Shown piece after piece: positions 18,145 through 36,384 of a stretch of DNA of 37,621 bases (the first letter of the stretch is position 1; each line of letters opens with the position of its first letter). The position numbers and the translations under genes were made by a program. Source of the DNA: Chloroflexota bacterium (GTDB taxonomy: Bacteria; Chloroflexota; Dehalococcoidia; Dehalococcoidales; RBG-16-60-22); assembly GCA_022574315.1 (NCBI GenBank), contig JACZSH010000001.1, positions 1 to 37,621 on the forward strand. Reading direction: 5' to 3'. The notes under the pieces are model-generated. The model made no database searches. It worked only from the letters and a program-made list of their open reading frames with translations, and was not told the origin of the DNA.

Positions 18145-18230
18145 CCGGGTGGTTCGGATGCCGTGTGTCCTGGCTTAATTAATAATTTAATGAGAATGGC
18201 ACCGCGGGGGTGGTTTGACGACCAATTATA

Positions 18231-19005: not shown

Positions 19006-19017
19006 AAAAGGAATAGT

Positions 19018-20979
19018 GTGGCAGATATAGGCTATATTTCGCTATTATTGGCGCTGGGCGCGGCAATATATTCAGTATTTGTTTACATATTGGGGATAAG
19101 AAAAAAACACCCTGCCCTGCTCCAAAGCGCTCGGAACGGCCTTATTGCCGTCGGTGGGCTGGTTTCTGTCTCGGTGATGGTGATGCTCATTGCCATACTC
19201 ACGCACAATTTCCAGATTGAATATGTCGCCTCCTATACCAGCCGTGACATGTCTCTGTCCTACCTGCTGAGCGCGCTATGGGCCGGAAATGATGGCTCAC
19301 TGCTTTTTTGGGCGTGGCTACTTTCTATCTTTGCGGTTATCGTCGTGCTCCAGAAGCGCGATGTCGGCAAAGAACTGGTGCCTTGCGCCGCCACGGTTAT
19401 CATGATTATCCAGATATTTTTCCTTATCCTGTTAGTTTCAATCTCAAATCCCTTTCAGGAACTCTCTTACCTTCCTGCTGAAGGCAGAGGTCTCAATCCA
19501 TTACTCGAAAATCCCGGCATGCTGTTCCACCCGCCCACCTTGCTCGCCGGCTACGTTGGTTTCACCATTCCTTTTGCTTTCGCCATGGCGGCGCTGCTCA
19601 CCCGCCGGTTAGGTGACGACTGGATTGTGGCCATCAGGCGCTGGACGCTGCTGGCCTGGCTCGTGCTGGGCGTTGGCAACCTGATTGGCGCCTGGTGGGC
19701 TTACGTTGAGCTCGGCTGGGGTGGTTACTGGGCCTGGGACCCCGTGGAGAGCGCCAGCCTGATGCCCTGGCTGGTCGCCACCGCTTTCCTGCACTCGATA
19801 ATGATGCAGCGAAGGCGCGGAATCCTCAAAATCTGGAATATGGTACTCATAATTATCACCTTCAACCTGACATTATTCGGCACTTTCCTCACCCGGAGCG
19901 GTGTTCTCGCCTCGGTGCATACCTTTTCTGACTACACTCTCGGGCCGTTCTTTCTCACCTTTATCGGCCTCTCCCTCTTCATCCCGCTCGGCTTGCTCTA
20001 CTATCGGAGTAACGAACTGCAGGGCGAAGCCGAGATGGAGTCGCTCGTTTCCCGGGAAAGCACCTTCCTCTTCAATAACCTGCTCCTGGTCGGCGCCGCT
20101 TTCGCCGTCTTTGTCGGCACCATTTTCCCGCTCGTCTCTGAGGCCGTGCGCGGCGTTAAAGTCACCGTCGGGCCCCCCTTCTTTAACCAGGTAAACGGGC
20201 CCATCTTCCTGGCCATCATTCTGCTCTCCGGTATCTGCACTCTCATCGGCTGGCGGCGGGCTTCAATCCGTAACCTGGTTCGTCATTTCCTCTGGCCTCT
20301 GGTCGCGGCGGTGGTTTTAGTGGTCGTGCTTCTCATCGCCGGTGTAACCAAGCTTTACGCTCTCATCGCCTTATCCATCAGCGCCTTCGTCTTCTTTACC
20401 ATCCTCTACGAATGGTTCCGGGGCACCCGGGCGCGCCACCGGGTGAGGGCGGAGAATTATTTCAAGGCATTCTGGGGACTGGTTATGAACAACCGGCCTC
20501 GCTATGGCGGCTATATCGTTCATATTGCTATCATCATCATCGCCGTCGGCGTTACCGGCTCTTCCCTCTACGGGACCGAAAAAGAGGTAACCATCGTTCC
20601 CGGTGAGTCTATGACCATCAACGACTATACCCTCACCTTTCAAAACATTGATAGCTATGAAACCGAAAGTAAAACCACCGTTACCGCCACCCTCACCGTT
20701 GAAAACAACGGCCGGTTGCTCGGTAAACTGACCCCGGAAAAATATTTCCATCGCAGTTATGACCAGGCCGTAACCGAAGTCGCTATCCGCAGCACCCTCG
20801 TCGAAGACCTCTATGTTATTCTTATCGGCTGGGAAGATGATGGCACCACCTCTTTTAAAGTAATGGTTACTCCACTGGTCAGCTGGATATGGATTGGCGG
20901 AATAGTCTTCACCGCCGGAGGGTTGATCGCCTTCTGGCCGGAGAGGAGAAAGACGCCGTCTAGGAGTAAGTTGGGGTAA
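19018..20979 (+). CDS. ccmF: Cytochrome c-type biogenesis protein CcmF (haem lyase/haem handling, WWD family)
   Basis: 653-aa polytopic membrane ORF with the WWD motif GWGGYWAWDPVESASLMPWL. GTG start. Confidence 0.9.
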   Translation: MADIGYISLLLALGAAIYSVFVYILGIRKKHPALLQSARNGLIAVGGLVSVSVMVMLIAILTHNFQIEYVASYTSRDMSLSYLLSALWAGNDGSLLFWAWLLSIFAVIVVLQKRDVGKELVPCAATVIMIIQIFFLILLVSISNPFQELSYLPAEGRGLNPLLENPGMLFHPPTLLAGYVGFTIPFAFAMAALLTRRLGDDWIVAIRRWTLLAWLVLGVGNLIGAWWAYVELGWGGYWAWDPVESASLMPWLVATAFLHSIMMQRRRGILKIWNMVLIIITFNLTLFGTFLTRSGVLASVHTFSDYTLGPFFLTFIGLSLFIPLGLLYYRSNELQGEAEMESLVSRESTFLFNNLLLVGAAFAVFVGTIFPLVSEAVRGVKVTVGPPFFNQVNGPIFLAIILLSGICTLIGWRRASIRNLVRHFLWPLVAAVVLVVVLLIAGVTKLYALIALSISAFVFFTILYEWFRGTRARHRVRAENYFKAFWGLVMNNRPRYGGYIVHIAIIIIAVGVTGSSLYGTEKEVTIVPGESMTINDYTLTFQNIDSYETESKTTVTATLTVENNGRLLGKLTPEKYFHRSYDQAVTEVAIRSTLVEDLYVILIGWEDDGTTSFKVMVTPLVSWIWIGGIVFTAGGLIAFWPERRKTPSRSKLG

Positions 20980-20993
20980 GCGAGGCATAAACC

Positions 20994-21482
20994 ATGAAAA
21001 TAAGAGGCATGTTAAGCACCTTGCTGCTCGTTCTGTTCGTTGCCTTTCTCCCCGCCCGGGCCAGCGCGGCAACGGTAGGCGATATCGCTTCTCAGCTTAT
21101 TTGCCAGTGTGGCTGTACCCTGGTTCTCAATAACTGTACTCATGAGGAATGCCATTCCCGGGAAAACATGACCAACCTGGTTGCGCAGCAACTGTCTCAG
21201 GGACAATCGGATGAGCAGATTATCCAACTCTTCGTTACCCAGTACGGCGAGCAGGTGCTGTCGTCACCCCCCAAGAGAGGATTCAATCTGACGGCCTGGA
21301 TTTTACCCTTTGCCGCCATTCTGGTGGGCGGTGGAGTCATCTATTTCCTGATCAGGAGATGGGTGAGAACAGGCCAATACTCCACGGTAGCGGTGGACAC
21401 CGAAAGCGATGCCGCCGACGATGAATACGAACGCAAACTTGAAGAAGAACTGAAGTCCTTTTCCGAAGGGAGTTTCCGATGA
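20994..21482 (+). CDS. ccmH: CcmH/NrfF/CycL-family protein with atypical Cys motif
   Basis: Signal peptide, then LICQCGCTLVLNNCTHEECHS in place of LRCxxCQNQS. The family core follows (LSQGQSDEQIIQLFVTQYGEQVLSSPP), then a TM helix. Confidence 0.7.
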   Translation: MKIRGMLSTLLLVLFVAFLPARASAATVGDIASQLICQCGCTLVLNNCTHEECHSRENMTNLVAQQLSQGQSDEQIIQLFVTQYGEQVLSSPPKRGFNLTAWILPFAAILVGGGVIYFLIRRWVRTGQYSTVAVDTESDAADDEYERKLEEELKSFSEGSFR

Positions 21483-21913
21483 CCGTTTTTATCGTTTTAG
21501 TATTGACGGTGGCCGCCTTTGCCTTTATCGTTTATCCCTTTTTCAAACGGAAGTTTGGCATCGTAGATACGCCCCGGGACACCGAACTGCAGGAACTGCA
21601 CTCCCGCCGCGATACTACTTACTCCATGCTTAAAGAACTGGAGTTTGATTACCAGTCGGGCATCCTGACCGAGGAAGACTACCGGGAACTGGAGAAAAGA
21701 TATAAAAGAAAAGGGATATCGATTCTGAAAAACATTGACCAGTTGGGTGAAGGGGCCGACCTGGATGACGATATCGAAGCACAGATAAAGAAAATGCGCC
21801 GGCCGGAAAGCGAGGCACGCTTCTGCCCGCAGTGCGGGGAGAAATACCGGGCAGGCGACCGCTTTTGCACCCACTGTGGCACACGTCTGAATGGGAAGGA
21901 AGATAGTGTTTAA
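21479..21913 (+). CDS. CcmI-N-terminal-like membrane protein with C-terminal zinc ribbon
   Basis: ATGA overlap with ccmH. One TM helix, then FKRK and LKELEFDYQSGILTEEDYRELEKRY (resembles the CcmI/CycH N-terminal module), ending in FCPQCG...FCTHCG. Confidence 0.5.
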   Translation: MTVFIVLVLTVAAFAFIVYPFFKRKFGIVDTPRDTELQELHSRRDTTYSMLKELEFDYQSGILTEEDYRELEKRYKRKGISILKNIDQLGEGADLDDDIEAQIKKMRRPESEARFCPQCGEKYRAGDRFCTHCGTRLNGKEDSV

Positions 21914-23078
21914 ACGGATTATGTTATTCATGGCCGTACTGAGCCTGAGCCTTGGTATCACCGCTCCGGCCATGGCCGCCGAAGATGGAAACGGCGTCAT
22001 TGAAGGCCGGTTAATTAACCGCACTGAGGGCGGCAGCAGCGTTGTCGACCAGGACATTGAATTAAAAATCTACCGGAATGACTCGGAAGCTGACTCTTCC
22101 TCGACCTCGACCGATGAGGAAGGTAAATTTGTTTTTGACGGCCTGTCCACCGAAAGGGAGTACAGCTACGAACTGACCGTAAACTACCAGGAAGCCGACT
22201 ATCAAAGTGACCGGCTTTATTTTCTGGGTGGGGAGACCAGCCTGCCCGTAGAGATAGAAGTCTATGATTCCACCACCAGCCCGGACGCCATCAAAATACA
22301 GCAGGCGCATACCGTCATCTATACTGACCCGGAAACCCTGTGGGTGGAAGAGTTTTTCCTCTTTATTAACCAATCTGACCGCACCTATATCGGTACGGAA
22401 GGTACCCTCGGCCCGGGAATCAGGCAGACACTCCAGTTTTCTTTGCCGGAGAATGCCCTGGAACTGCAGCCGGCCGGTGAACTGATGCAGTGCTGCGTTT
22501 ATGGTACCGAGACCGGTTTTGTCGATAGCATGCCCTTTTTCCCCGGGGGCAAAGAGATTTCCTATGCTTATAAGATTGAGTACGGCCCCAAGGTACATAC
22601 CTTCTCCTGGAAGGTGAACTACCCGGTGGCCAAATACGACCTTCTGGTTCAGGGCACGGACAGCGTCATCAGCAGTGACTGGCTCACGCCTGACCAGCCC
22701 ATGGATATCAGCGGCGTTTTGTTTAACCATGTCTATGGTGAAGGGTTTACCCTGGGCGATACCGTAGTTTTTGAGATTTCTGGCTTGCCAGAGGTTGACA
22801 ATCAGAATATAATCTTATGGGTTGTCCTGACGGTAGTGGCACTCGGTTTCGGCTTTGGCTTCGTCCTCTTTCGCCGAAACAAGAAAGTTCAGCCCGTCCG
22901 GGTAGGAAACAACCTGGAGCAGCAGAAACAGAAACTGCTGGTCGAGATTGCCCGATTAGACGACACTTTCGAAAGTGGCAGCATGAGCCAGAAGGCATAT
23001 AATAAAATGCGAGCCGAAAAGAAAGCGAAGCTCCTCTCGTTGATGCAAAGGGCAAAAGGTAAGAGTGGCAACAGGTAA
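21906..23078 (+). CDS. Secreted/membrane-anchored protein of unknown function (signal peptide, beta-rich ectodomain with CarboxypepD_reg-like start, C-terminal TM plus cytoplasmic helical tail)
   Basis: GTG at 21906 (GGAAGGA RBS) gives the signal peptide MFKRIMLFMAVLSLSLGITAPAMA|AEDG. The ATG at 21891 is the alternative start. VIEGRLIN...EEGKFVFDGL is like a carboxypeptidase regulatory domain. TM helix IILWVVLTVVALGFGFGFVLF, then a basic/helical tail. Confidence 0.6.
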   Translation: MFKRIMLFMAVLSLSLGITAPAMAAEDGNGVIEGRLINRTEGGSSVVDQDIELKIYRNDSEADSSSTSTDEEGKFVFDGLSTEREYSYELTVNYQEADYQSDRLYFLGGETSLPVEIEVYDSTTSPDAIKIQQAHTVIYTDPETLWVEEFFLFINQSDRTYIGTEGTLGPGIRQTLQFSLPENALELQPAGELMQCCVYGTETGFVDSMPFFPGGKEISYAYKIEYGPKVHTFSWKVNYPVAKYDLLVQGTDSVISSDWLTPDQPMDISGVLFNHVYGEGFTLGDTVVFEISGLPEVDNQNIILWVVLTVVALGFGFGFVLFRRNKKVQPVRVGNNLEQQKQKLLVEIARLDDTFESGSMSQKAYNKMRAEKKAKLLSLMQRAKGKSGNR

Positions 23079-23818
23079 TGGAAGAATCCGGTTCGGCTTC
23101 CCCATCCCGGGCAATCACTGTCCATGGACTTACCAAGTCTTTCGGTAATCACCATGCTTTAAAAGGAATAGACTTTGAGGTAAGCCGGGGAGAGTCGGTC
23201 GTTATCTTTGGACCTAACGGAGCCGGCAAGACTACCCTGATAAAGATTCTGGCCACTATCATGAACCCGTCTTCCGGACGGATATTGGTCGATAACCTGG
23301 ACCTCAAAGACCATGCCATAAAGATTCGCCGCTCGATTGGTATCGTCACCCACCAGACGTTTCTTTACGGGAACCTCACCGCCCGCGAAAACCTGGAATT
23401 CTACGCCCGTATGTATGACGTGCCCGACCGTCAAAAGCGCATTCGAGAACTGGTGGCACTGGTCGGTATGGCCCACCGCCTCAACGACCGCGTGGGCACC
23501 TTTTCCCGGGGTATGCAGCAGAGACTCTCTATTGCCCGTGCCCTGCTCCACAGGCCATCCCTGATGCTGCTTGATGAGCCGGAGACGGGCCTTGACCAGG
23601 AAGCCAACGCCATGCTCTGGGAAGCCCTGCGCAGCGGCGAAACCGGGACCACTCCCACCATTATTCTTACCACCCACAGCCTGGAGCGCGGACTGGAACA
23701 GTGTAGCCGGCTTCTTATTCTGGTGCAGGGACAAATCACCTTTGAAGGGTCAAAACAAGCCCTGAAACTGGACGACCTGAAGAGGCTTTACCGGCATCAC
23801 ACTGGAGTGAATGCGTGA
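23078..23818 (+). CDS. ccmA: Haem exporter ABC ATPase CcmA
   Basis: Walker A GPNGAGKTT, signature FSRGMQQRL, Walker B LMLLDEP. TAATG overlap with the upstream gene and GTGA overlap with ccmB. Confidence 0.85.
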   Translation: MEESGSASPSRAITVHGLTKSFGNHHALKGIDFEVSRGESVVIFGPNGAGKTTLIKILATIMNPSSGRILVDNLDLKDHAIKIRRSIGIVTHQTFLYGNLTARENLEFYARMYDVPDRQKRIRELVALVGMAHRLNDRVGTFSRGMQQRLSIARALLHRPSLMLLDEPETGLDQEANAMLWEALRSGETGTTPTIILTTHSLERGLEQCSRLLILVQGQITFEGSKQALKLDDLKRLYRHHTGVNA

Positions 23819-24486
23819 AATACTGGCAGAAAATCATGACCGTCACCTGGAAAGACACCATCGCTGAGATGCGCACCCGGGAAATTATCTCCTCAGTGCT
23901 CGTTTTTACTCTCCTGGTAATCGTGATTTTCAACTTTGCTTTCGGGACCAACCAGACAACTTTAAATTTGGTAGCCCCGGGTATCCTCTGGGTTACTTTC
24001 ACCTTCGCCGGCGTTCTTAGCCTCAACCGGGCCTTTGTCCCCGAAAAAGAGCAGGGTTGTCTTGAAGGCTTGATGGCCTGCCCGGTTAGTCGGGAGGTTA
24101 TCTATGTCGGTAAAATGCTGGCCAGTCTGCTCTTCATGCTCATTATTGAAGCCATTGCTCTGCCCATCTTCGCCTTTCTCTTTAATTTGCCCGTCCTGTC
24201 TCTGCAAATAATCGTCATCACGGTACTGACTACCATCGGATTTGTCACCGTCGGCACTCTCTTCTCGGCTCTGGCGGTGAATACCAAGGCGCGAGAGATG
24301 ATACTGCCCATCCTTTTCCTGCCCGTGGTCATCCCCATTATTATTAGTGCCGTGCTGGCCACCGGGACGGCGCTGGCCGGCGGCTCATGGAGTGAACTGG
24401 CTTCCTCGCTTCAAATTATCGCTGTCTTTGATGTAATATTTCTGGTAGTATCGTTTCTGGTTTTTCCCTATGTCATCGAAGAGTAG
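23815..24486 (+). CDS. ccmB: Haem exporter membrane protein CcmB
   Basis: 223-aa six-TM ORF immediately after ccmA and before ccmC. The N-terminal KDTIAEMRTREIISSVLVF pattern is typical of CcmB. Confidence 0.8.
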   Translation: MKYWQKIMTVTWKDTIAEMRTREIISSVLVFTLLVIVIFNFAFGTNQTTLNLVAPGILWVTFTFAGVLSLNRAFVPEKEQGCLEGLMACPVSREVIYVGKMLASLLFMLIIEAIALPIFAFLFNLPVLSLQIIVITVLTTIGFVTVGTLFSALAVNTKAREMILPILFLPVVIPIIISAVLATGTALAGGSWSELASSLQIIAVFDVIFLVVSFLVFPYVIEE

Positions 24487-24511
24487 TCATGCCCGAAAAG
24501 GAGGATGAATT

Positions 24512-25171
24512 ATGCTCAGAAAATTGTTAGTATGGCTCGGTGTGACCCTGATGGTGTTTTCCTTGTTCCTCGTCTTCGTTTACGTTCCCACGGAGAGGAC
24601 CATGGGTATCGTGCAGAAAATCTTTTACCTCATGGTGCCGATGGGCTGGTTGGCAATACTCTCCTTCCTCATTATTTTCGTCGGCAGTATCTTCTACCTC
24701 GCTAAGAAGAGCCGCCGGTGGGACAACCTTGCTTTCTGCGGGGCTGAAACGGGGCTGGTCTTTACCACTCTGGCTTTGATTATAGGGTCTATCTGGGCAA
24801 AACCCATCTGGGGAGTCTGGTGGACCTGGGAACCTCGCTTAACCGCTACCCTGGTTCTCTGGTTGATTTACATCGCTTATTTTATGGTGCGCTCTTTTGC
24901 CTCGGAAGAATACCGGGGGGCAACCTTTGCCGCCGTCGTTGGCATTGTCGGCTTCGTTGACATCCCCATCATTATCCTGTCCACCACCCTCTGGCGGGGG
25001 ATGCATCCCGGGCCGATTATTTTTCAGGGCGGACTGGAACCTGCCATGCTCTTCACCTTGCTGGTCAGCCTGGCGGCCTTTACCGTTTTATATGTTCTTA
25101 TCCTTACCCAGCGTGTTTCACTGAGAAATGACCAGATGGAATTAGCCAGATTGAAGGAACTATACCATTAA
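24512..25171 (+). CDS. ccmC: Haem exporter / haem delivery protein CcmC (WWD family)
   Basis: AAGGAGG RBS. WAKPIWGVWWTWEPRLTA tryptophan-rich motif. Polytopic membrane protein. Confidence 0.85.
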   Translation: MLRKLLVWLGVTLMVFSLFLVFVYVPTERTMGIVQKIFYLMVPMGWLAILSFLIIFVGSIFYLAKKSRRWDNLAFCGAETGLVFTTLALIIGSIWAKPIWGVWWTWEPRLTATLVLWLIYIAYFMVRSFASEEYRGATFAAVVGIVGFVDIPIIILSTTLWRGMHPGPIIFQGGLEPAMLFTLLVSLAAFTVLYVLILTQRVSLRNDQMELARLKELYH

Positions 25172-25367: not shown

Positions 25368-25955
25368 GTGACGGCTGGCGCCCTGGCTCTGGCCGGCCGC
25401 CATCATTTTATAGCGCCGCCGGCGGGTACGGAAAAGGTCAGGATGAGGATAAAAAAATCACAAGACCTTTCCATCAGTATCCTCGATGAGATAAACAAGC
25501 TGATTTATGAACTTCGCCCCTCACTCCTTGACGATTTGGGACTGGTGGCGGCGGCACGCTGGCTGGCGGGAAACAACCTGGAGACCGCCGGGATAAAAGT
25601 GGATTTTAAGACGGTCGGCAAGGAGAAGCGGTTACCATCTCAACTGGAAACAACCCTCTTCAGGGTCATCCAGGAAGCGGTGACCAATATCACCCGGCAT
25701 GCCGGCGCCAAAAACACCAGTATCAGCTTACAGTTCAAGCGGAGCCTGATCCGGGTCAGTATCAAGGATGACGGTAAAGGCTTTGACGTCGAGGAAGCGA
25801 TAACTTCTAGAGACCGCCCCCGGGGACTGGGCTTACTCGGTATGAAAGAGAGAGTTGAACTGGCGAAAGGTACTTTAAGCATACGTTCACGGGCCGGTTA
25901 CGGGACGCAGATCAGCATTGAAATTCCGTTAAAACAGGCAGTCGATAACTGGTGA
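25368..25955 (+). CDS. Truncated sensor histidine kinase (end of a HisKA_3 dimerisation helix plus HATPase_c); no sensor domain or H-box
   Basis: IYELRPSLLDDLGLVAAARWL, then the N-box RVIQEAVTNITRHA and G-boxes DDGKGFD and GLGLLGMKERV. There is no HD(x)xxQ phospho-acceptor helix and no room for one after ccmD. GTG-initiated ORF. Confidence 0.6.
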   Translation: MTAGALALAGRHHFIAPPAGTEKVRMRIKKSQDLSISILDEINKLIYELRPSLLDDLGLVAAARWLAGNNLETAGIKVDFKTVGKEKRLPSQLETTLFRVIQEAVTNITRHAGAKNTSISLQFKRSLIRVSIKDDGKGFDVEEAITSRDRPRGLGLLGMKERVELAKGTLSIRSRAGYGTQISIEIPLKQAVDNW

Positions 25956-26025: not shown

Positions 26026-27285
26026 TTATGCCCACGCCTCAGGAAAATACTGGATAGTCGCGTCTGGAATTACGGCCACCTTTGCCTTCTCTCCGTATTC
26101 GCTCCGGAGTTTATGAATCACCTCCGGCCACGCCTTTGCCCAGTTAATCATGTCGGGCGGCGCCAGCCAGTCGGCGCCCACCCGGTCGGCGTACTGGGCA
26201 AGCACCGTCAGACGCTTTGTGCCGGCGGGTAGTCCGGTAGGCACCCCCTCCGGACCTTTCGTTTTCCAGCCCCGGCCGCCAAACTTCTTACCGAAACTCC
26301 GCAGCAGGTAGTGGTGTATCTGGCCTTCCGGGGTAATGGCGATAACCACCATATCGCCGCCCGTCTTGGGCAGCATCGGCGAGGCTACCATCGGCGCCAG
26401 CAACATCTCGTTTGCCTTGGAGAAGCAGTTAGCGATGACGATGTCCGCATCACGCACCATGGCTGTCTCGTAATGCTTTCTGGCCAGTTTTACCCCCTCC
26501 GTGAATTCGGCCAGCGGGTCACCCACGAACAGGGCGGTTACTTGTCTCTTTAAGTTAAGGATGGCGTCCACCTTAATATCCAATCCGGCCAATTGGGCGG
26601 TCTCGATGATATCCTGCATCAGGTCGTTTTTGGCCAGTTCTCCGGCGTGTACATCGGGAGAGCGCCCCAGCCGGCCATGGTTAGCGTCTATCGTATCCAT
26701 GGCAGCGACCCCGGGCATGATTATCTTGCACCCGCCGCCAAAACCGAATGGGTGCGGGACGATGGCGCCGATGCCGATGGTAAGGTCGCAGGCCATGAAC
26801 TCGCTGTTAATGGCGACTGGTGTCCCGTAACTGGTCTTACCGATTGGTGTGCAGTTCTCGTACGGGTTGTGGTTGTAGACCATGAACCGGTCCATAACGT
26901 CCTCCCCCAGCTTCTTCCTGAAGTCAATACCGTTCATCGTCCCGTGCGCCCCGATGGCGGCAATGAAGCGTATGTTATCATCCGGAATGCCCGCCGACGC
27001 CAGTTCCTCCAGGATAAAGGGTATCAGGTCGGCGCTCGGTGTTGGTCGAGACATGTCATCAAAAAGTATGGCCACTTCTTGCTTCCCCTCGGCCATTTCC
27101 CTTATCGTCCGGGTGCCGATAGGGTTGGCGAAGGCTTGCCTGATACCAGCCTCGTTCAGTGGCGGCGCATCCTGTCCTTTCATCTTGCAGACGGTTACGT
27201 CCCACGATTCGGGAAAGTCCAGTTCAAGTTCTTCATCACCGTACCAGGCCAGTATTGGTATGGTTACCTTTTTCGTATGGCTCAC
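26026..27285 (-). CDS. LarA-family (DUF2088) nickel-pincer-nucleotide-dependent 2-hydroxyacid racemase/epimerase homologue
   Basis: GTG start with AGAGG RBS. AAIGAHG and VPHPFGFGGGCKIIMPGVAAMDTIDANHG reproduce the LarA catalytic His / GGxK tether / Ni-His arrangement as I recall it. Confidence 0.8.
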   Translation of the reverse strand: MSHTKKVTIPILAWYGDEELELDFPESWDVTVCKMKGQDAPPLNEAGIRQAFANPIGTRTIREMAEGKQEVAILFDDMSRPTPSADLIPFILEELASAGIPDDNIRFIAAIGAHGTMNGIDFRKKLGEDVMDRFMVYNHNPYENCTPIGKTSYGTPVAINSEFMACDLTIGIGAIVPHPFGFGGGCKIIMPGVAAMDTIDANHGRLGRSPDVHAGELAKNDLMQDIIETAQLAGLDIKVDAILNLKRQVTALFVGDPLAEFTEGVKLARKHYETAMVRDADIVIANCFSKANEMLLAPMVASPMLPKTGGDMVVIAITPEGQIHHYLLRSFGKKFGGRGWKTKGPEGVPTGLPAGTKRLTVLAQYADRVGADWLAPPDMINWAKAWPEVIHKLRSEYGEKAKVAVIPDATIQYFPEAWA

Positions 27286-27375: not shown

Positions 27376-28743
27376 CTATAAAAATTCTTTTTCAAAATCG
27401 CCCAGCGCGTCATCCAGCATATCGAAGGCGGCGTCAATCTCGCCTTCGGTGATGATAAAAGGCGGCGAGACCAGGAAAGTGTCTCCTCTCACCCCATTAT
27501 CCACCCCGGTGGTCGGGTAACCCATGCACCCCTTGTCCATCGCTATCCGCTGGAAGCGGTTGGCCGCTCTTAGTGTCGGGTCGAAAGGCTCCTTCGTCGC
27601 CTTATCCTTCACCAGTTCGATGCCCATGAGCAGTCCCTTGCCCCGGATATCTCCTACCACCGGGTGTCCGGACAGCTTCTCTCTGCCTTTTTTAAAGAAG
27701 TATTCTCCCAGCCGGGCGCTGCGTTCCACCAGCCCTTCCTTTTCGATGATGTCGATTACGGTCAGGCAGGCTGTCGCCGATACCGGGTTGCCCTCCATGG
27801 TGAAACCGTGGATAAAGCTGGCCCCTTTCTCGGTGAACACTTCCCCTATTTTCCGGTCGATAATCGCCACCGCCATCGGCGTGTAGCCGCCGGTCATTCC
27901 CTTGGCTGAGGTGATGATGTCCGGTTGTACTCCCCAGTGCTCGATGCCGAACCACTTGCCGGTACGGCCGAAACCGCAGATAATCTCGTCGTCGATGAAA
28001 AGGACGTCGTGTTTATCGCAGATTTCTCTTATCATCGGATAGTACTCCGGCACCGGGACCATGCAGGCGGTGCCCGCACCGCCGATAGATTCGGCGATAA
28101 AGGCGGAAACGTACTGGGCGCCGACCTGGTTGATAATCTCGTCCAGGGCGCGGGCGCAGCGGATTTCACAACCGGGATAGGTCGTATCGTAAGGGCAGCG
28201 GTAGCAAAGCGGCGAGCCTATCTTCGGCCACTGGTGCAGCAGAGGGTTGAACTTGAGGCGGCGTCCGGTGTGCCCGGACGCGGATAGCGCCCCCAGCGTC
28301 ATACCGTGGTAACTTTGCCATCGTGATATCACCATGTGTTTCTCCGGGTTCCCGTTCTCCACGTGGTACTGGCGGGCAACTTTTATGGCGGTCTCGTTGG
28401 CCTCTGAGCCGCTGTTACAAAACTGGCACATGGTCAGGTTGGATGGGGAAACCTCGATGATTCGCTCGGCCAGAGCCAGCAAAGGCTCATTCAGCCAGAA
28501 ACCGCGAAAGAAAAAAGAGACCTTCTTCATCTGTTCCATCATGGCGTCTCTTACTCTCGGGTCGCCGTGTCCGATGGAGACCACGTGCGGGCCGCCGCTG
28601 AAATCAAGATATCTTTTACCTTCCTGGTCGAAAAGATAGACTCCTTCGCCGTGGTCGCAAATCACCTGCGGCAGCAGCGGACCGTGCACCGTGCCGAAAA
28701 CGTTGCCGGCTTTCTGCTGGGCGGCTTCTAACCGGTCTGGCAT
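27376..28743 (-). CDS. Class-III (omega-) aminotransferase, paralogue A
   Basis: 455 aa. [37 protein letters not shown] (PLP Lys). Roughly 70% identical by eye to the 31175-32542 product. Confidence 0.9.
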
Positions 28744-29043: not shown

Positions 29044-29700
29044 ATGGCAGCAGAGAGTAAATATGAGCGATTAAGTGAAGCGATAATAGAGGGGGACGGC
29101 GGCAAGACGTTAGCTGCCATTGAGGAAGCGTTACAGGGAGGCATGGCGCCGGGGGAGGTTATCGAAAAAGGGCTGACCCCGGGGATGAAAGAAGTCGGGG
29201 AACGGTTTGCCCGCTATGAGATATACCTGCCGGAGATGATGATGGCCGGGGAGGCCTGGGAGCAGGCGATGAAGGTACTGGAGCCGAAGCTGCTGGCCGC
29301 CGGCGGGGAGAAAAAGAAAGCCGGCCGGGTGGTCATCGGCACGGTCAGTGGTGACGTGCACTCGATAGGCAAAAACATCGTGGCGGCGATGTTAAAGATG
29401 AACGGGTTTGAGGTATTTGACATTGGCATCGACGTGGCGTCGTCGGTATTTGTCACCCGGGCTGAGGAGGTAGGGGCGGACATTATTGCCGCCTCGGCGC
29501 TGATGAGCACCACCATGCCGCAGCAGCGAGACATTATCGAGCACCTGGAAGCCCGTGGAGTGCGTGACAAGTACACATTTCTGGTGGGCGGTGGTTCCAC
29601 CAGTCAGGAGTGGGCGGACAGCATCGGCGCTGATGGCTACGGGCGGACGGCGGGAGACGCGGCGGCATTGGCCTTGAAAGTGATGGCGGGTAAGAGTTAA
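29044..29700 (+). CDS. Cobalamin-binding corrinoid protein (MtmC/MtbC/MttC-like: B12-binding_2 cap plus Rossmann B12 domain)
   Basis: DxHxxG motif GDVHSIGKN (29353-29370) followed by FEVFDIGIDV ... SALMSTTM ... LVGGG. Size (218 aa) and helical N-terminal cap fit methyltransferase-cognate corrinoid proteins. Confidence 0.85.
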   Translation: MAAESKYERLSEAIIEGDGGKTLAAIEEALQGGMAPGEVIEKGLTPGMKEVGERFARYEIYLPEMMMAGEAWEQAMKVLEPKLLAAGGEKKKAGRVVIGTVSGDVHSIGKNIVAAMLKMNGFEVFDIGIDVASSVFVTRAEEVGADIIAASALMSTTMPQQRDIIEHLEARGVRDKYTFLVGGGSTSQEWADSIGADGYGRTAGDAAALALKVMAGKS

Positions 29701-29752: not shown

Positions 29753-31141
29753 ATGCTTAGTTTTGCGGCGGTAGTTGACCGCGCTTTAAGCGGGCCGATA
29801 TGCACGGAGCGGGATTTTGAGTTGGGGATTTTTGTGCCCAACCTGCGCCGGGTAGTTGAGAAATATGATATTAAGTATGACCCGCAGAATCCGGTACCGG
29901 CGGACGATGATTTAGCCGACCGGGTATGGGAGGCAGGGCTGGAGTTCCTCACCGAGACGGGTGTTTACTGCACGGATACGGAGCGGCGGATACTGTTCAC
30001 GAGGGAAGAGATAGAGGGGGCGTTAGCCTTCGGGCCCCGTGGCAACACCTTTGGTGAAGGTAAAGACGCCAAAGTAATGCCCCGTCGTCGTCCTGAAGAC
30101 GAGACTCCGCCCTGGTGCTCGGTGGGCCCCACTTCCTCCCCCCTCTCCAGCGAACAGATTTACCTCAGCATCGTCAAGGCTCACGCCGAGAACCCGCTGG
30201 GAAACTCCATTACCATTCCCTGCCTGACCATGGTGGACGGCCGGCAGATAGTGGCCGGCAGCCCCTTGGGCATAGAAGGCGCCATCCGGGCGGTGCTGCT
30301 GACTCGCGAGGCAATGCGCCGGGCCGGTCGACCCGGCATGCCCATCGTCAACGGCGTCACTACCGCCGCCAGGTCTCAGGAGCATATCGCCGCCCATCGC
30401 TTTGGCCTTCGCCAGTCTGATGCCATGGAGATAGGCACCACTCACGAGATGAAGATTGATTTCGATTCTTTGAACAAGATTGCCTTTTCGCTGGCCGCCG
30501 GCAGTCTCGTTTTTGCCGAGAACGGCGTTATCCTGGGTGGTCTCGCCGGCGGGCCGGCCGGTGTCGCCGTGGTCACCGCCGCTTACAATCCGGTGGATAT
30601 ATTAGTCCTGCGCGGCGCCGTCCAGCACCCCTTCCCCACCCACTTTGACCTTGGGGTAACTTCCACCCGGGACACCATCTGGCCGCGCAGCCTGGCCAAC
30701 CAGGCAATCACCCGTAACAGCTCCCTGCCGGTGGTCAACGTTGGCTACTCCGGGGCCGGCCCGATGACCAAGATGCTCTATTACGAGCACTCGGCATGGG
30801 TCATTGCCTCCGTCGTCTCCGGTGGCTCCATCGAGGTCGGCGCGTCGGCACGCGGCACGACCCTTGACTACACCAGTCCCATCGAACCACTCCTCGCTTC
30901 TGAGGTCGCCCATGCCGTGGCCGGGATGAGCCGTCCGGAAGCCAACAAGATAATCAATGTCCTCCTGGCTAAGTACGAGGACAACCTGCGCAACCCGCCT
31001 GCCGGCCAGCGTTACCAGGAATGCTTTGACGTGGCCAGCGGAACCCCCACCGCGGAATGCGCTGCGCTTTACCGCGAGGTCAAGCAGGAAATGGCGGATG
31101 AGTTCGGCCTGAAATTTAATCCTGTCTCGCCCTATGCGTAG
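29753..31141 (+). CDS. Monomethylamine methyltransferase MtmB-family homologue, pyrrolysine-free (copy 1)
   Basis: The 462-aa uninterrupted ORF is collinear with Methanosarcina MtmB as I recall it: GVYCTDTERRILFTREEI vs GIYCTDTHRIVKYTEDEI; AGRPGMPIVNG vs AGRPGMGV(Pyl)G; PAGQRYQECFDV vs PAGKTFQECYDV. No in-frame TAG. Confidence 0.8.
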   Translation: MLSFAAVVDRALSGPICTERDFELGIFVPNLRRVVEKYDIKYDPQNPVPADDDLADRVWEAGLEFLTETGVYCTDTERRILFTREEIEGALAFGPRGNTFGEGKDAKVMPRRRPEDETPPWCSVGPTSSPLSSEQIYLSIVKAHAENPLGNSITIPCLTMVDGRQIVAGSPLGIEGAIRAVLLTREAMRRAGRPGMPIVNGVTTAARSQEHIAAHRFGLRQSDAMEIGTTHEMKIDFDSLNKIAFSLAAGSLVFAENGVILGGLAGGPAGVAVVTAAYNPVDILVLRGAVQHPFPTHFDLGVTSTRDTIWPRSLANQAITRNSSLPVVNVGYSGAGPMTKMLYYEHSAWVIASVVSGGSIEVGASARGTTLDYTSPIEPLLASEVAHAVAGMSRPEANKIINVLLAKYEDNLRNPPAGQRYQECFDVASGTPTAECAALYREVKQEMADEFGLKFNPVSPYA

Positions 31142-31174: not shown

Positions 31175-32542
31175 ATGTCTGAGCGATTGGATGCCGCTAA
31201 AAAAGCGCGTACCAAAGTATTTGGTGTTTTATCCTCCCTGCCCGCCGAACGTATCTGCGACCACGGTGAAGGGGTTTACCTCTTTGACCAGGACGGCCGG
31301 CAGTACATTGATTTTTCCGGCAGTCCCATGGCCTGTTGTCTCGGGCATGGCGACCAGCGGATAACCCGCGCCGTCACCGAACAGATGCAGAAGGTAAGTC
31401 TCTGCTTCAACACCTACTGGATTAATGAACGTGAGGGAGAACTGGCCGAAAGAGTCCTCCGCCGTGCCCCGCGGAACATGGCGCGCTGCCAGTTTCTCAA
31501 CAGCGGCTCGGAAGCCACCGAATCGGCCATCAAGCTCGCCCGCCAGTACCACCTGGAAAACGGGCAGCCGGGAAAATACATGGTTATCTCCCGCTGGCAG
31601 AGTTATCACGGCATGACCCTGGGCGCGCTTTCCGTAACCGGATTTTCCAGCCGCCGGGATAAGTTTACTCCCCTCCTCCAATCCTGGCCCAAGATAGATG
31701 CGCCGCTTTGCTACCGCTGCCCCTACGATATGACCTATCCGGGCTGCGAAGTCCGCTGCGCCCGCGCCCTGGACGATATTATCAACCAGGTCGGCGCCCA
31801 GTACGTCTCCGCCTTTATCGCCGAACCAATCGGCGGCGCCGCCAGCGCCGCAATGGTGCCCGTGCCGGAGTATTATCCCCTGATAAGAGAAATCTGCGAT
31901 AAACACGACGTCCTGTTCATCGACGATGAGGTTATCTGCGGTTTCGGCCGCACCGGTAAATGGTTCGGCATCGACCACTGGGGGGTACAACCGGACATCA
32001 TCACCATGGCCAAAGGAATGACCGGCGCCTATACCCCCCTGGCTGCCATACTGGTTTCCGACCGTATCGTCGGCGTTTTTGAGCAGACCGGGGGCAAGTT
32101 CATCAATGCCTTTACCACCGCCGGAAATCCGGTTTCCTGCGCCGCCGGCATCGCCGTGGTCGATATTATAGAGAATGAAGGACTGGTCGAACGCAGTGCC
32201 CGGTTAGGTGAGTACCTGCACCGGCGTGCCCGGGAGAAGCTCTCTCATCACCCCGTGGTCGGTGATATTCGCGGCCGGGGTATGCTTATGGGAGTAGAGC
32301 TGGTCAGGGATAAGGCCACTAAGGAACCTTTTGACTCTTCCCTGCTGGCCGGTTCCCGCGTGCATCGTCTGGCTATGGAAAAAGGGTGTATGGTCTTCCC
32401 CACTTCCGGCTTTGTCCATGGCGTCCGGGGAGATGCCATCATGATGGCGCCGCCTTATATTATCACCGAGGCGCAGATTGACGCCGCTCTTGATATGGTA
32501 GACGAATCGCTGGCTGACTTCGCCCAAGAAATTGCCGGGTAA
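31175..32542 (+). CDS. Class-III (omega-) aminotransferase, paralogue B
   Basis: 455 aa. [37 protein letters not shown]. Starts 33 nt after the MtmB-like gene. Confidence 0.9.
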   Translation: MSERLDAAKKARTKVFGVLSSLPAERICDHGEGVYLFDQDGRQYIDFSGSPMACCLGHGDQRITRAVTEQMQKVSLCFNTYWINEREGELAERVLRRAPRNMARCQFLNSGSEATESAIKLARQYHLENGQPGKYMVISRWQSYHGMTLGALSVTGFSSRRDKFTPLLQSWPKIDAPLCYRCPYDMTYPGCEVRCARALDDIINQVGAQYVSAFIAEPIGGAASAAMVPVPEYYPLIREICDKHDVLFIDDEVICGFGRTGKWFGIDHWGVQPDIITMAKGMTGAYTPLAAILVSDRIVGVFEQTGGKFINAFTTAGNPVSCAAGIAVVDIIENEGLVERSARLGEYLHRRAREKLSHHPVVGDIRGRGMLMGVELVRDKATKEPFDSSLLAGSRVHRLAMEKGCMVFPTSGFVHGVRGDAIMMAPPYIITEAQIDAALDMVDESLADFAQEIAG

Positions 32543-32591: not shown

Positions 32592-33071
32592 TTACGGAGT
32601 GGCTCCCATGTGATGGATTAATTCGATGGTATCCATCAGGCCGTCCCCTCCCTTGATGGTGTCCAGATTGACGAAGGTTTCCGTCCTCAGGATGCTGGGA
32701 ATAGCCGATATTTCCCGCTCGATAAACTGGGCCAGTTCCTCGGGCGATTTGGTAACCACGATAGCCATCAGGTCGTATCGGCCGGTGACAAAAGCCAGGT
32801 AGCAGATATGCTTATTCTTGGCCAGCTTTTCGGCAACTTGTCTCAGGTCCTCCATCTTGACCTGGATTCCCGCGATGCCGATAAAGCCATAACCCAGCTT
32901 TCGCATGTTTGGTACCGCCACTATCTTGATGAGGTTCTTACCCAGCAGGTTCTTTATCCTTTTCCGTATCGTGCCCTCAACGACTCCCATTTTCTTTGCC
33001 AGTTTAACGTAGCCCTCCCGGCCATTTTCCTGCAATTCAATAATTAATTTTCTGTCTAGGTCATCAATCAT
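32592..33071 (-). CDS. Lrp/AsnC-family transcriptional regulator
   Basis: DDLDRKLIIELQENGREGYVKLAKKMGVVEGTIRKRIKNL (HTH), then an RAM/ACT-like domain (VTGRYDLMAIV). Confidence 0.9.
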   Translation of the reverse strand: MIDDLDRKLIIELQENGREGYVKLAKKMGVVEGTIRKRIKNLLGKNLIKIVAVPNMRKLGYGFIGIAGIQVKMEDLRQVAEKLAKNKHICYLAFVTGRYDLMAIVVTKSPEELAQFIEREISAIPSILRTETFVNLDTIKGGDGLMDTIELIHHMGATP

Positions 33072-33386: not shown

Positions 33387-33565
33387 TGCCAATATATGAC
33401 TTGATAAATGTAGGAAAACGTGATGAATAATATGGCGTGAAAATGTCATGGCCTGGCCGCGCTGCGGGCTGAGAAGGGCTGAACTCGCCTGTCGGCGAGT
33501 TCGGAAAAATGTAGCTCTGTTTTTGAATCCCGGCAGGCAGTAAATAAATACGGATGGAGAATCAA

Positions 33566-34936
33566 ATGAAATCTGACGATGTGGAAAAATTGGTCGCTAC
33601 GGCAAAAAAGTATTTGTGGCCGGCATTTGCCCGGGACGCCTCCTTCTTCGGCCGTCCGGTATCTATCATTAAGTCCGCTGAGGGACGTTATTTTCTGGAC
33701 AGCTTTGGCAACCGGTTGCTTGAACCTAACTCGTCCGGTGGCGCGGCTCCCCTCGGCTATAACCTCCCCGAGCTTATGCAGGCCGTCTCCGAGCAAATGA
33801 GCCTGATTATCAACACCACCCCCAGCCTCTTTGCCCCCACCGAGCCCATCGTCTGGCTCGCCGAGAAGATTGCCCATATTTCGCCGGGTAATCTGACATA
33901 CACCATCTTTGGCAGCAATGGCACGGACGCTAACGAGGCGGCGGTGAAAATAGCCCGCCATTACTGGAAAATAATGGGCAAAGCTACCAAGTACAAGGTG
34001 CTTCACCGCTACCCGGGAGACTATCACGGCTTCAGTCTCGGCATGTCCAGTGCCAGCGGTCATTCTTTCCGGCGGACGGCCTTTGAACCGCTCATGGCCG
34101 GTTTTGTCGCTTTTCACGCCCCTAACTGTTATCGCTGTCCGTATAACCTGACCCATCCGGAGTGTGACCTGCTCTGTGCGGAAGAGTTCCGCAAAGTGGT
34201 TGAGTTTGAAGACCCGTCCACCATTGCCGCCCTCATCAGTGAAAACACCAATACCGGTCTGGGGATGGTGCTGCCGCCCCCCGGCTACATGCAGAGAATG
34301 CGCGAGATTTGTGACCGGTATGAAATCCTCATGATTCTGGATGAGATAATTACCGGTTTTGGCAAGACCGGCGTCTGGTTTGAATGTGAAAAGTATGATA
34401 TCGTCCCGGACATGATTGCCATGGGAAAAGGCATCGTCTGGGGCTGCGGCCCTCTGGCGGGGACGCTGGTCAGGGGTGACATTACCGAGGTATTTACCGG
34501 CGCCAATGCCTTGCAGCACGGTTTTACTTTTGGCGGCCTGGGTTACCTGGCCGCCGCCGGTCTCGCCGGTATCAAATACGTCGAAGAACATAATCTGCTG
34601 GCCCGGGCGTCTCAGATAGGTGACATAATGTCACGGGAGCTCGGTGCCATTAAGGACCGCTCAAAGATTATCGGTGACGTCCGTGTCAACGGCGTCCTCG
34701 CTGGCGTCGAGTTTGTCCGCGACAAGAGCACTAAAGAGCTTTTCGTCGACCGTGCCGCCGTGTCCAACCTCATCGTCAAGGTGGGCATGGAAAACGGTGT
34801 CCTGCTGCCCTGTTCCACCTGGTATGGAGATATCCTGATGTTGATGGTGCCGATGACCATGACCGATGACGAGTTGGGTATGCTCTTTAACGCCATCGAA
34901 AAGGCGACTGCCGAAGTAGAACGTCAGTTCCTTTAG
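33566..34936 (+). CDS. Class-III (omega-) aminotransferase, divergent paralogue C
   Basis: GSNGTDANE, ILDEIITGFGKTGVWFE, IAMGKGI (PLP Lys). ATG at 33566 has GGAG 6 nt upstream; ATG at 33554 is the alternative start. Confidence 0.85.
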   Translation: MKSDDVEKLVATAKKYLWPAFARDASFFGRPVSIIKSAEGRYFLDSFGNRLLEPNSSGGAAPLGYNLPELMQAVSEQMSLIINTTPSLFAPTEPIVWLAEKIAHISPGNLTYTIFGSNGTDANEAAVKIARHYWKIMGKATKYKVLHRYPGDYHGFSLGMSSASGHSFRRTAFEPLMAGFVAFHAPNCYRCPYNLTHPECDLLCAEEFRKVVEFEDPSTIAALISENTNTGLGMVLPPPGYMQRMREICDRYEILMILDEIITGFGKTGVWFECEKYDIVPDMIAMGKGIVWGCGPLAGTLVRGDITEVFTGANALQHGFTFGGLGYLAAAGLAGIKYVEEHNLLARASQIGDIMSRELGAIKDRSKIIGDVRVNGVLAGVEFVRDKSTKELFVDRAAVSNLIVKVGMENGVLLPCSTWYGDILMLMVPMTMTDDELGMLFNAIEKATAEVERQFL

Positions 34937-34946
34937 GCAGCACTGT

Positions 34947-34978
34947 CCTTGAAAGTGATGGCGGGTAAAAGTTAAAGG
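34947..34978 (+). repeat. Orphan remnant of the corrinoid-protein gene 3' end (CCTTGAAAGTGATGGCGGGTAAAAGTTAAAGG)
   Basis: Matches 29672-29703 (the last codons ...LKVMAGKS-stop of the corrinoid gene plus RBS start) with a single mismatch, but here it follows an aminotransferase gene. Confidence 0.8.
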
Positions 34979-34998
34979 GTTCGAGGAGAGATATAAAA

Positions 34999-36384
34999 AT
35001 GCTTAGTTTTGCGGCGGTAGTTGACCGCGCCTTAAGCGGGCCGATATGCACCGAGCGCGATTTTGAGTTGGGGATTTTTGTGCCCAACCTGCGCCGGGTA
35101 GTTGAGAAATACGGGATAAAGTATGACCCCCAGAATCCGGTCTCCGCTGATGATGACCTGGCCGACCGGGTATGGGAGGCAGGACTGGAGTTCCTCGCCG
35201 AGACGGGTGTTTACTGCACGGATACCGAGCGGCGGATTACGTTTACCCGGGAAGAAATCGACGGCGCCCTGGCGACGGCGCCTCGCCCGGTTCTTTTCGG
35301 CGATGGGAAAGATGTTAGAGCCGTACCCATCCGCCGCCCTGAAGACAAGACCCCGCCTTGGTGTTCTGGTTCCGGTGCCGGCCCGGTATCCACGGAACAG
35401 ATTCTTTTCAACGTGGTAAAACTGTATGCCCAGGACCCCCTCAGCGATGGTATTACCGCCCCCGCCATGTCCTACGTCGGTGGACGGGACATTATTGCCG
35501 GTAGCCCCCGCGGCCTGGAAGGCGCCATCCGCACCATTCTTTTAACCCGTGAGGCGCTGCGCCGTGCCGGACGTCCCGGCATGCCCGTCGTCAACGAGGT
35601 CGCCACTGCGGTGCGGGCGCAGGAGCATATCGCCGGACACCGCTTCGGCAGCGTGAAGACCGATTACCTGGAAATAGGCACCACCCACGAGTTGAAAGTT
35701 GATTTTGACGCGCTGAACCGGGTGGCCTACTGGCTGGCCGCCGGGAGCTACGGCTTTGCCGAAAACGGCGTTATCCTGGGTGGTCTTTCCGGTGGGCCCG
35801 CCGGTGTGGCGGTGGTTATCGCCGCCTATAATCCGTTGGACATGCTCGTCCTGCGCGGTGCGGTGCAGCACCCCTTTGCCGTTCCTTTTGAGGGAGGCAC
35901 CACCTCCAACCGTGGTTGCATGTGGGCACGGAATTTGGCCACGCAGGCAATAACCCGCCACAGTCCTATGCCGCTGGTTAACTCCGGTTATTCTGCTGCC
36001 GGGGCAATGACCCGGATGGCCTATTATGAATTTGCCGCCTGGGTTATCGGCTGCGTCGTCTCCGGGGCTTCCGTTGAGCTGGGCCCGCCGTTACGGGGCA
36101 CCGCCCTCGACCACAGTGCCCCCCTGGAGGATATTTTCGGAAACGCGGTCGCCCACGCCGCGGTGGGCCTGAGCCGCCGGGAAGCCAACAAGATACTCCA
36201 GGCGCTCCTGGAAGAATATGAAGCCAAGCTGGCTGACCCTCCGCTGGGCAAGAGATATCAGGAATGCTACGACCTGGCTACCGGTGAGCCGACTAAAGAA
36301 GCCGTTGACCTCTGCCGGGATGTCAGGCGGGAGATGTCTGACCGGTTCGGTCTGAAGTTCCCCCGTGTCTCGCCGTACCTGTAG
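34999..36384 (+). CDS. Monomethylamine methyltransferase MtmB-family homologue, pyrrolysine-free (copy 2)
   Basis: 461-aa uninterrupted ORF with the same family landmarks (GVYCTDTERRITFTREEI, AGRPGMPVVNE, PLGKRYQECYDL). About two thirds identical to copy 1 by eye. Confidence 0.8.
   Translation: MLSFAAVVDRALSGPICTERDFELGIFVPNLRRVVEKYGIKYDPQNPVSADDDLADRVWEAGLEFLAETGVYCTDTERRITFTREEIDGALATAPRPVLFGDGKDVRAVPIRRPEDKTPPWCSGSGAGPVSTEQILFNVVKLYAQDPLSDGITAPAMSYVGGRDIIAGSPRGLEGAIRTILLTREALRRAGRPGMPVVNEVATAVRAQEHIAGHRFGSVKTDYLEIGTTHELKVDFDALNRVAYWLAAGSYGFAENGVILGGLSGGPAGVAVVIAAYNPLDMLVLRGAVQHPFAVPFEGGTTSNRGCMWARNLATQAITRHSPMPLVNSGYSAAGAMTRMAYYEFAAWVIGCVVSGASVELGPPLRGTALDHSAPLEDIFGNAVAHAAVGLSRREANKILQALLEEYEAKLADPPLGKRYQECYDLATGEPTKEAVDLCRDVRREMSDRFGLKFPRVSPYL

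Follow-up and report, generated by a model that had tools for sequence, protein, structure and literature searches.

The window analysed in this study is the whole stretch of 37,621 nucleotides from a Dehalococcoidia-type Chloroflexota bacterium (contig JACZSH010000001.1), and the subject of the analysis is a pair of genes that belong to the family of the monomethylamine methyltransferase MtmB and carry a sense codon where Methanosarcina barkeri MtmB has pyrrolysine (Pyl). Paralogue 1 (29753-31141, forward strand) encodes 462 amino acids and paralogue 2 (34999-36384, forward strand) 461 amino acids, each gene ending in a TAG stop codon. PF05369 was the sole match of both proteins in a Pfam scan (E 4.3e-92 and 309.7 bits for paralogue 1, E 6.9e-79 and 266.2 bits for paralogue 2, gathering cut-off 25 bits), with the matches spanning profile positions 6-447 of 450. 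The two proteins are 68% identical, and paralogue 1 shares 31% identity with M. barkeri MtmB1 over 446 residues. In the Protein Data Bank (PDB), phmmer matched only M. barkeri MtmB1 (1L2Q, 1NTH and 1TV2; E 3e-63), residues 8-453 aligning with 13-456. Zero internal stops were found in both open reading frames (ORFs), and the single TAG in each is the terminal stop. The ORF check and the end-to-end PF05369 match bear out an earlier reading made from the letters of the window (hereafter the sequence-only reading), which had stated that neither gene contains an in-frame TAG and that both have MtmB-like length. An in-frame UAG at the Pyl202 position, by which Pyl-dependent MtmB (EC 2.1.1.248) is recognised, is present in neither paralogue; both are of normal length without a Pyl codon, as non-Pyl MtmB homologues have been delimited (PMC13044021).

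A gene for a cognate corrinoid (B12-binding) protein of 218 amino acids (29044-29700, forward strand; PF02310 and PF02607) lies 52 nt upstream of paralogue 1. The protein scored 222.7 bits against TIGR02370, 'methyltransferase cognate corrinoid protein' (cut-off 215.3), and possesses the DxHxxG cobalt-ligand (His-on) motif as DVHSIG (residues 104-109, 29353-29370). Comparison with related loci, which are given L-numbers with L004 as the closest relative, revealed a corrinoid gene directly upstream of the MtmB gene or gene array in most of them, distant clades included; 3 of 32 were without an adjacent copy. Judged by its sequence and position, the corrinoid gene is assigned with paralogue 1 to a canonical pair of substrate:corrinoid methyltransferase (MT1) and corrinoid protein.

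In the PDB chains 1L2Q and 1NTH the Pyl site of M. barkeri MtmB reads AGRPGMGV-X-GPETS, where X is residue 202, in agreement with the AGRPGMGV that the sequence-only reading had given as preceding Pyl in Methanosarcina. At this site paralogue 1 reads AGRPGMPIVNG and paralogue 2 AGRPGMPVVNE, compared with AGRPGMGV-Pyl-G in M. barkeri MtmB. The GRPGMPIVN motif of paralogue 1 (G192-N200) occupies 30326-30352 on the forward strand, where GTC (30347-30349) encodes V199 and AAC (30350-30352) encodes N200, followed by G201 (30353-30355). By codon reading, the GRPGMPVVN motif of paralogue 2 (G191-N199) occupies 35569-35595 on the forward strand; the sequence-only reading had rightly recognised the same motif here, but its placement around 35581-35598 was slightly off, the true span lying upstream.

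Alignment with Pyl-containing MtmB placed the Pyl position at V199 or N200, within the motif for which this had been claimed. The HMMER alignment has a one-residue gap before Pyl, by which Pyl202 corresponds to N200; the MAFFT alignment of 163 family members has the gap after G203, by which Pyl202 corresponds to V199 and G203 to N200. Relative to MtmB, the window proteins have one additional residue between GRPGM and the next segment, offset by the loss of one residue about 20 positions on. Pyl202 of MtmB is reported to sit on a beta-strand within the triosephosphate isomerase (TIM) barrel (PMC9842639), and an AlphaFold2 (AF2) model of paralogue 1 has a three-residue strand at 198-200. Analysis of the N200 column across the family revealed glycine in 43, asparagine in 24 and alanine in 12 out of 127 sequences, a composition that appears typical of a turn position. 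The V199 column is highly variable family-wide (L, G, I, V, S, C and others), and about 34 cluster representatives with the longer 'xN' version, in which N is invariant by construction, have V/A/Q/L/I/F/W/H/G/M/C at position 199. Since position 199 varies while the N200 column looks turn-like, we lean towards V199 as the positional equivalent of Pyl and N200 as its conserved neighbour, with the register uncertain by one residue. A sense codon occupies the Pyl site under either register, and the codons and both alignments agree with the claim that Pyl is replaced in a conserved GRPGMP(I/V)VN motif in both paralogues.

A total of 120 closest database proteins (64-96% identity; those that are named come from metagenome-assembled genomes (MAGs) of Dehalococcoidia or Chloroflexota) were compared at this motif. 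The pattern G[RK]PG followed by (M/L/I)(P/A)(I/V/L/A)VN was found in 109 of them, and the remaining 11 differ only at the P-G pair (GRSG, GRPD, GRLD, GRAD, GRQD, DRAG) and keep MPIVN. A chance match is excluded by this conservation of the motif. In the alignment of the members of the Dehalococcoidia clade, V199 and N200 each occur in all 53 sequences.

Analysis of selection and fold revealed that the two genes are maintained. Comparison with the L004 orthologues gave ratios of nonsynonymous to synonymous substitution rates (dN/dS) of 0.058 for paralogue 1 and 0.121 for paralogue 2, and comparison with more distant orthologues gave 0.07-0.10, indicating purifying selection. With 91 sequences as input, the AF2 model reached a predicted local distance difference test score (pLDDT) of 93.2 and a predicted template-modelling score (pTM) of 0.93. 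Foldseek superposed it on 1NTH with a template-modelling (TM) score of 0.94 and a root-mean-square deviation (rmsd) of 1.7 A over 455 columns; the TM scores against 7XCL and 2QNE of the MttB superfamily (MttB, MtgB) were 0.49-0.57. Paralogue 1 is thus modelled with the TIM-barrel fold of MtmB, in answer to the structural modelling that the sequence-only reading had proposed, and the same score, the full-length PF05369 match and the lack of a UAG codon uphold its view that the scaffold is conserved while Pyl is absent. The genes are not decayed, because the ORFs are intact, dN/dS is 0.06-0.12, the MtmB fold and the corrinoid partner are kept and V199 and N200 are invariant in the clade.

No pyl genes and no tRNA, including by a scan for tRNA-Pyl, were found in the 37,621-nt window. 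TAG is the stop codon of 9 of the 34 window genes, both mtmB-like genes included. In the literature TAG makes up about 17-18% of stop codons in organisms that do not use Pyl versus less than 5% in Pyl-using methanogens (PMC12180501). The use of TAG in the window resembles that of non-Pyl organisms and is not decisive for bacteria, because TAG need not be depleted in bacteria whose use of Pyl is facultative. Genes for pylS have been reported in Chloroflexi/Dehalococcoidia lineages (PMC5424206), so absence of pyl from the source genome is not to be assumed, and the conclusion does not need it.

Homologues of MtmB without Pyl are common. An exhaustive HMMER scan of 1.84 billion representatives at 50% identity found 1080 clusters at E <= 1e-3, of which 216 reached E <= 1e-30. 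Among the best 150 of these clusters, 127 have full-length representatives (at least 430 amino acids) without X, O, U or a stop. Clades differ in the residues after GRPG(M/L): GIHN in a Desulfobacterales-type clade, PMFVAPGC in Anaerolineales/Kiritimatiellia/Flavobacteriaceae, and HINDV, PIGCAN and others elsewhere. A possible in-frame Pyl codon in the Anaerolineales homologue at L019 was rejected, as it is the natural stop within an over-extended tblastn alignment. Published work describes MtmB homologues without Pyl as long recognised; a function was first established in 2026, for MtqB of Methanococcoides methylutens Q3c (ACT9XH_RS04775), which uses tetramethylammonium and choline to methylate cob(I)alamin and acts weakly on monomethylamine (11 nmol/min/mg) (PMC13044021). 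The novelty implied by the sequence-only reading was therefore overstated: a sense codon at the Pyl site is not new in itself, and the window genes are a correct rediscovery of a known class, which is a recognised and very large family.

Comparison of the putative pocket residues set the clade of the window proteins apart. Glutamic acid was found at position 226 in all 53 members of the Dehalococcoidia clade and at position 256 in 50 of the 53, and these positions align with E229 and E259 of M. barkeri MtmB. The Desulfobacterales-type clade, with which the window proteins share about 37% identity, has alanine or cysteine in the E226 column and leucine in the E256 column; both columns are variable family-wide, and the clusters nearest to the window share the E226 and E256 pair with M. 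barkeri MtmB. N257 and Y332 are also kept in the Dehalococcoidia clade, with tyrosine and phenylalanine there in the Desulfobacterales-type clade, whose set (H199, Y257, F332, L256) is more hydrophobic and aromatic. Q333 of M. barkeri, a further putative Pyl contact, is replaced by valine or serine in the window proteins.

The genes occur in arrays with a mosaic history. Tandem arrays of one to four MtmB copies behind a single corrinoid gene were found in L004, L008, L009/L033, L010 and L029. The VVNE signature of paralogue 2 marks an orthologous group of its own, present in L004, L008, L009 and L011, and the IVNG and VVNE signatures are each kept across several MAGs, which points to an old duplication with divergence of function. 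Paralogue 2 is itself a mosaic: DNA identity to paralogue 1 is 97, 86 and 84% in the first three 90-nt blocks and 57-80% in later ones, and over those first three blocks identity to its own L004 orthologue is only 74-87%, so that its 5' end (the first ~270 nt) is chimeric and resembles paralogue 1. The remnant of a corrinoid gene, consisting of the last 12 codons and the stop, is found at 34937-34975 on the forward strand, fused to the stop of the preceding aminotransferase gene; it reads AALSLKVMAGKS, compared with AALALKVMAGKS at the end of the intact gene. At this position (15127-17207 of its own sequence) L004 keeps the second corrinoid gene in full, along with two additional MtmB paralogues. 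The mosaic paralogue and the corrinoid remnant (34937-35270 of the window) point to deletion or unequal recombination within the array, or to assembly collapse of repeats. Within L004 a corrinoid gene and the first 270 nt of the next MtmB gene are duplicated (9285-10270 and 15127-16112), with 100% identity over those 270 nt and 62 nt upstream and 57-90% thereafter, which indicates recent gene conversion or segmental duplication as judged from the identity profile. The L004 duplication is reminiscent of the concerted evolution of mtmB and mtmC reported in Methanosarcinales (PMC6053082).

Three class-III (omega-type) aminotransferase genes surround the pair. Aminotransferase a (27376-28743, reverse strand; PF00202, E 3e-95) has orthologues that adjoin MtmB in L004 and L027. 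Aminotransferase b (31175-32542, forward strand; PF00202, E 3e-91) begins 33 nt downstream of paralogue 1 and has the same position in L004 and L028. Aminotransferase c (33554-34936, forward strand; PF00202, E 6e-70) lies directly upstream of paralogue 2. The nearest PDB relatives of aminotransferase b are omega-, putrescine- and gamma-aminobutyrate (GABA)-type transaminases, and those of aminotransferase c are amine, taurine and omega-amino-acid transaminases; no NCBIfam equivalog was matched at cut-off by the aminotransferases of the window. A homologue of the LarA-like (nickel-pincer) 2-hydroxyacid racemases (26026-27285, reverse strand; PF09861 Lar_N, E 1.5e-54) is co-located in L004, L027, L028 and L034, and its best NCBIfam match was malate racemase LarAH6, under its cut-off. 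A regulator of the Lrp/AsnC family, of the amino-acid-responsive type (32592-33071, reverse strand; PF01037 and PF13404), is divergent from aminotransferase c and kept in L004, L028 and L029. An Rfam scan of the window for a riboswitch that would name the ligand gave no match.

The gene order aminotransferase-corrinoid-MtmB recurs in L004, L027, L028, L029/L030 and L034, and the set of three aminotransferases with the LarA-like gene recurs in L004 (95% orthologue), L028 (87%) and L027 and L034 (82-84%). A tight operon of an aminotransferase, a corrinoid gene and four MtmB genes (gaps of 37 and 15 nt), followed by a tripartite ATP-independent periplasmic (TRAP) transporter, was found in L029/L030.

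Overall, our analysis suggests, with a probability of roughly 70%, that the two genes encode functional Pyl-independent MT1 proteins of the MtmB family whose substrate is likely an N-methylated amine or amino acid, demethylated to a primary amine that passes to omega-transaminases; an N-methylated amine is proposed because of the omega-transaminase operon context. A small methylated compound, bound at the centre of the TIM barrel, would give up a methyl group to the MT1, which would hand it on to Co(I) of the adjacent corrinoid protein (29044-29700), and a methylcorrinoid:tetrahydrofolate methyltransferase (MT2) encoded elsewhere would carry it into one-carbon metabolism. V199 and N200 on the strand would replace the long Pyl side chain and leave a cavity lined by E226 and E256, the retained glutamates holding the protonated nitrogen. 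The demethylated primary amine may then be deaminated by the co-transcribed omega-type transaminases, and dehydrogenases and the LarA-like racemase may process the resulting oxo or hydroxy acid. The two paralogues, as separate orthologous groups, could serve different substrates or successive demethylation steps. The data show the family membership, the fold, the lack of Pyl, purifying selection, the conserved corrinoid pairing and the recurrent transaminase linkage; that the methyl group goes to the corrinoid, what the substrate is and how the glutamates and transaminases act are what we infer from them. The sequence-only reading had argued for a different substrate or activation chemistry rather than a decayed gene; absence of decay is shown by selection, fold and partner, and the different substrate or chemistry is plausible by analogy with MtqB and from the transaminase-rich operon.

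Several observations weigh against this interpretation. Linkage to transaminases is not universal among the related loci: in L001/L033 the neighbours are phosphotriesterase (PTE), enolase-superfamily and dihydrodipicolinate synthase (DHDPS) genes on the opposite strand, and in L031/L032 (72% relatives) a conserved corrinoid-MtmB-enolase-glycerate kinase (MOFRL)-GntR-fumarylacetoacetate (FAA) hydrolase operon contains no class-III transaminase. The latter context hints that the substrate of L031/L032 may differ, with a product entering lower glycolysis via glycerate. Given these differing neighbours, several substrates are probably handled across the clade. No MT2 and no RamA-type activator was found in the window or in the flanks of related loci examined. 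E229 and E259 of MtmB reportedly contact the pyrroline ring of pyrrolysine (Hao et al., 2002/2004), and the lining of the cavity by V199, N200, E226 and E256 is suggested by alignment only. Pyl is believed to overcome a leaving-group problem that secondary amines pose as well, and the preferred substrates of the non-Pyl enzymes characterised so far are quaternary amines.

A more specific form of the proposal is put forward tentatively, as one possibility. It holds that the clade demethylates secondary or tertiary N-methyl amines, such as N-methylated omega-amino or dicarboxylic amino acids, that E226, E256 and N200 hold the protonated nitrogen, and that the paralogues act stepwise and deliver their product to the omega-transaminases. 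If true, this would constitute an anaerobic route of complete N-demethylation in subsurface Chloroflexota that achieves without pyrrolysine a chemistry believed to require it.

The window proteins could instead be quaternary-amine methyltransferases of the MtqB type, acting on tetramethylammonium, choline or another betaine, substrates that already bear a positive charge and require no activation, and the transaminases would be unrelated or act later. Tetramethylammonium and choline are substrates of the sole characterised non-Pyl MtmB (PMC13044021), every non-Pyl MttB enzyme characterised so far acts on a quaternary amine (PMC9768040), and arrays of three to four paralogues could carry out three successive demethylations from a betaine. 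We consider this doubtful, as the tertiary amine formed is not a transaminase substrate and the Dehalococcoidia clade keeps two glutamates and an Asn-rich pocket, unlike the Desulfobacterales-type clade.

A methyl donor that is not an amine (a methoxy compound, methylated thiol or halomethane), with the MtmB fold a mere scaffold for corrinoid methylation, appears unlikely, and less probable than quaternary amines. A non-Pyl protein of the MtmB superfamily was the most strongly induced in dichloromethane-grown 'Candidatus Formimonas warabiya' (PMC9768040), and the L031/L032 sub-clade adjoins enolase, glycerate kinase and 2-hydroxyacid dehydrogenase genes, not transaminases. The presence of class-III aminotransferases in the same operon in the window, L004, L027, L028, L029 and L034 speaks against such a donor, as does the conservation of acidic residues at positions facing the amine in MtmB.

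Very improbable is that these are true monomethylamine methyltransferases which work without pyrrolysine, for which the low monomethylamine activity of MtqB, 11 nmol/min/mg without Pyl (PMC13044021), and the E226 and E256 pair common to M. barkeri MtmB could be cited: several diverged paralogues with distinct signatures per genome are unlike a single small substrate, the product ammonia needs no transaminase, and TRAP and ATP-binding cassette (ABC) uptake systems for organic acids occur in the related loci. Degenerate copies of a Pyl-containing mtmB, in a host that lost or still has the Pyl system, would account for the missing Pyl and would fit the pylS of some Dehalococcoidia (PMC5424206), but this reading, the only rival effectively excluded, is ruled out by the dN/dS values and the conservation across many MAGs, with intact ORFs, a high-confidence fold and a kept corrinoid partner.

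The rest of the window contains further gene clusters. A histidine-kinase ORF at 25368-25955 has just 195 amino acids (the HATPase end); its L028 counterpart has 773 amino acids with dCache, HAMP, GAF and HisKA_3 domains, the L004 locus is longer there by about 1.8 kb, and the sensor part of the window kinase appears to have been deleted. A system-I cytochrome c maturation cluster (18604-25171; CcmE, CcmF, CcmH, ABC CcmA/B and CcmC-like), in the same order in L028, is interrupted by a zinc-ribbon protein and a 395-amino-acid protein without a Pfam match (21891-23078). Only short ORFs, none above 112 amino acids, occur in the ~1.6 kb at 17000-18600; the two that were tested lack a Pfam match, and neither an Rfam family nor a tRNA was found there. 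A sulfur and cysteine-methionine block (8684-16992, forward strand) encodes an Rrf2 regulator, a ThiF-like E1, three PALP enzymes (one TusA-fused), a small sulfite-reductase-like Fe-S protein, a 3'-phosphoadenosine-5'-phosphosulfate (PAPS)-reductase-like protein and a Cys/Met pyridoxal-phosphate (PLP) enzyme, and may constitute an unusual thiocarboxylate-based route to cysteine or homocysteine. A complete-looking tetrapyrrole block (100-8386, reverse strand), adjoining a MerR regulator, encodes a fused uroporphyrinogen-III methyltransferase/synthase, porphobilinogen deaminase, glutamyl-tRNA reductase, a sirohaem synthase-like protein, a fused NirDL-type sirohaem decarboxylase and two radical-SAM proteins, and is an alternative (Ahb) haem pathway.

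Anaerobes possess many Pyl-free relatives of the methylamine methyltransferases, of which only one of the MtmB type has an assigned substrate. The Dehalococcoidia clade, with its Glu/Asn pocket, its arrays and its transaminase-LarA-Lrp operon, provides a handle for a second function in the non-Pyl MtmB family and bears on how subsurface Chloroflexota channel the methyl groups and nitrogen of methylated amines into metabolism. It also offers a clean test of what Pyl is needed for, as the scaffold is kept, along with two acids that reportedly contact Pyl, and Pyl itself is gone.

A literature search on MtmB-like clusters of Dehalococcoidia found nothing relevant, and the known systems nearest to the window proteins come from other organisms. 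Like them, Ga0180325_111810 of 'Candidatus Formimonas warabiya' DCMF is a Pyl-free MtmB homologue, in an anaerobe rich in corrinoid methyltransferases; it differs in being induced on dichloromethane, has about 30% identity to other MtmB-superfamily proteins and no transaminase context is reported for it (PMC9768040). The non-Pyl MttB superfamily (MtgB for glycine betaine, MtpB for proline betaine, MtcB for carnitine and MtyB for gamma-butyrobetaine) follows the same evolutionary logic, that of a Pyl family with many Pyl-free paralogues, each with a cognate corrinoid protein. In the non-Pyl MttB enzymes a larger, pre-charged substrate is thought to fill the space of the Pyl adduct. By sequence, however, they are non-homologous to the window proteins, which have no PF06253 match and a TM score of about 0.5 to them.

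M. barkeri MtmB shares with the window proteins the family, the fold (31% identity, TM 0.94), the length, the GRPGM strand motif, E229 and E259 in the form of E226 and E256, and pairing with a DxHxxG corrinoid protein. It differs in having Pyl where the window protein has V199 or N200 on a strand or loop that is one residue longer; the window host is bacterial, and the genes stand beside omega-transaminase and LarA-like genes instead of methanogenesis genes. MtqB is likewise a Pyl-free enzyme of the MtmB family that adjoins its own corrinoid protein, and it demonstrates that Pyl is dispensable for activity in this family. A Desulfobacterales-type homologue, taken as possibly MtqB-like from its length of 459 amino acids and a remark on foraminifera symbionts, was used to seed a homology search; its matches were bacterial by name or unnamed, none being named as archaeal. 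MtqB is archaeal and linked to coenzyme M (CoM), and belongs to a clade near the Pyl-containing MtmB proteins with a sulfur- and aromatic-rich (Met/Cys/aromatic) pocket (PMC13044021). By this published description of MtqB, the clade of the window appears to be set apart from it by its Glu/Asn-rich conserved residues and its transaminase neighbours.

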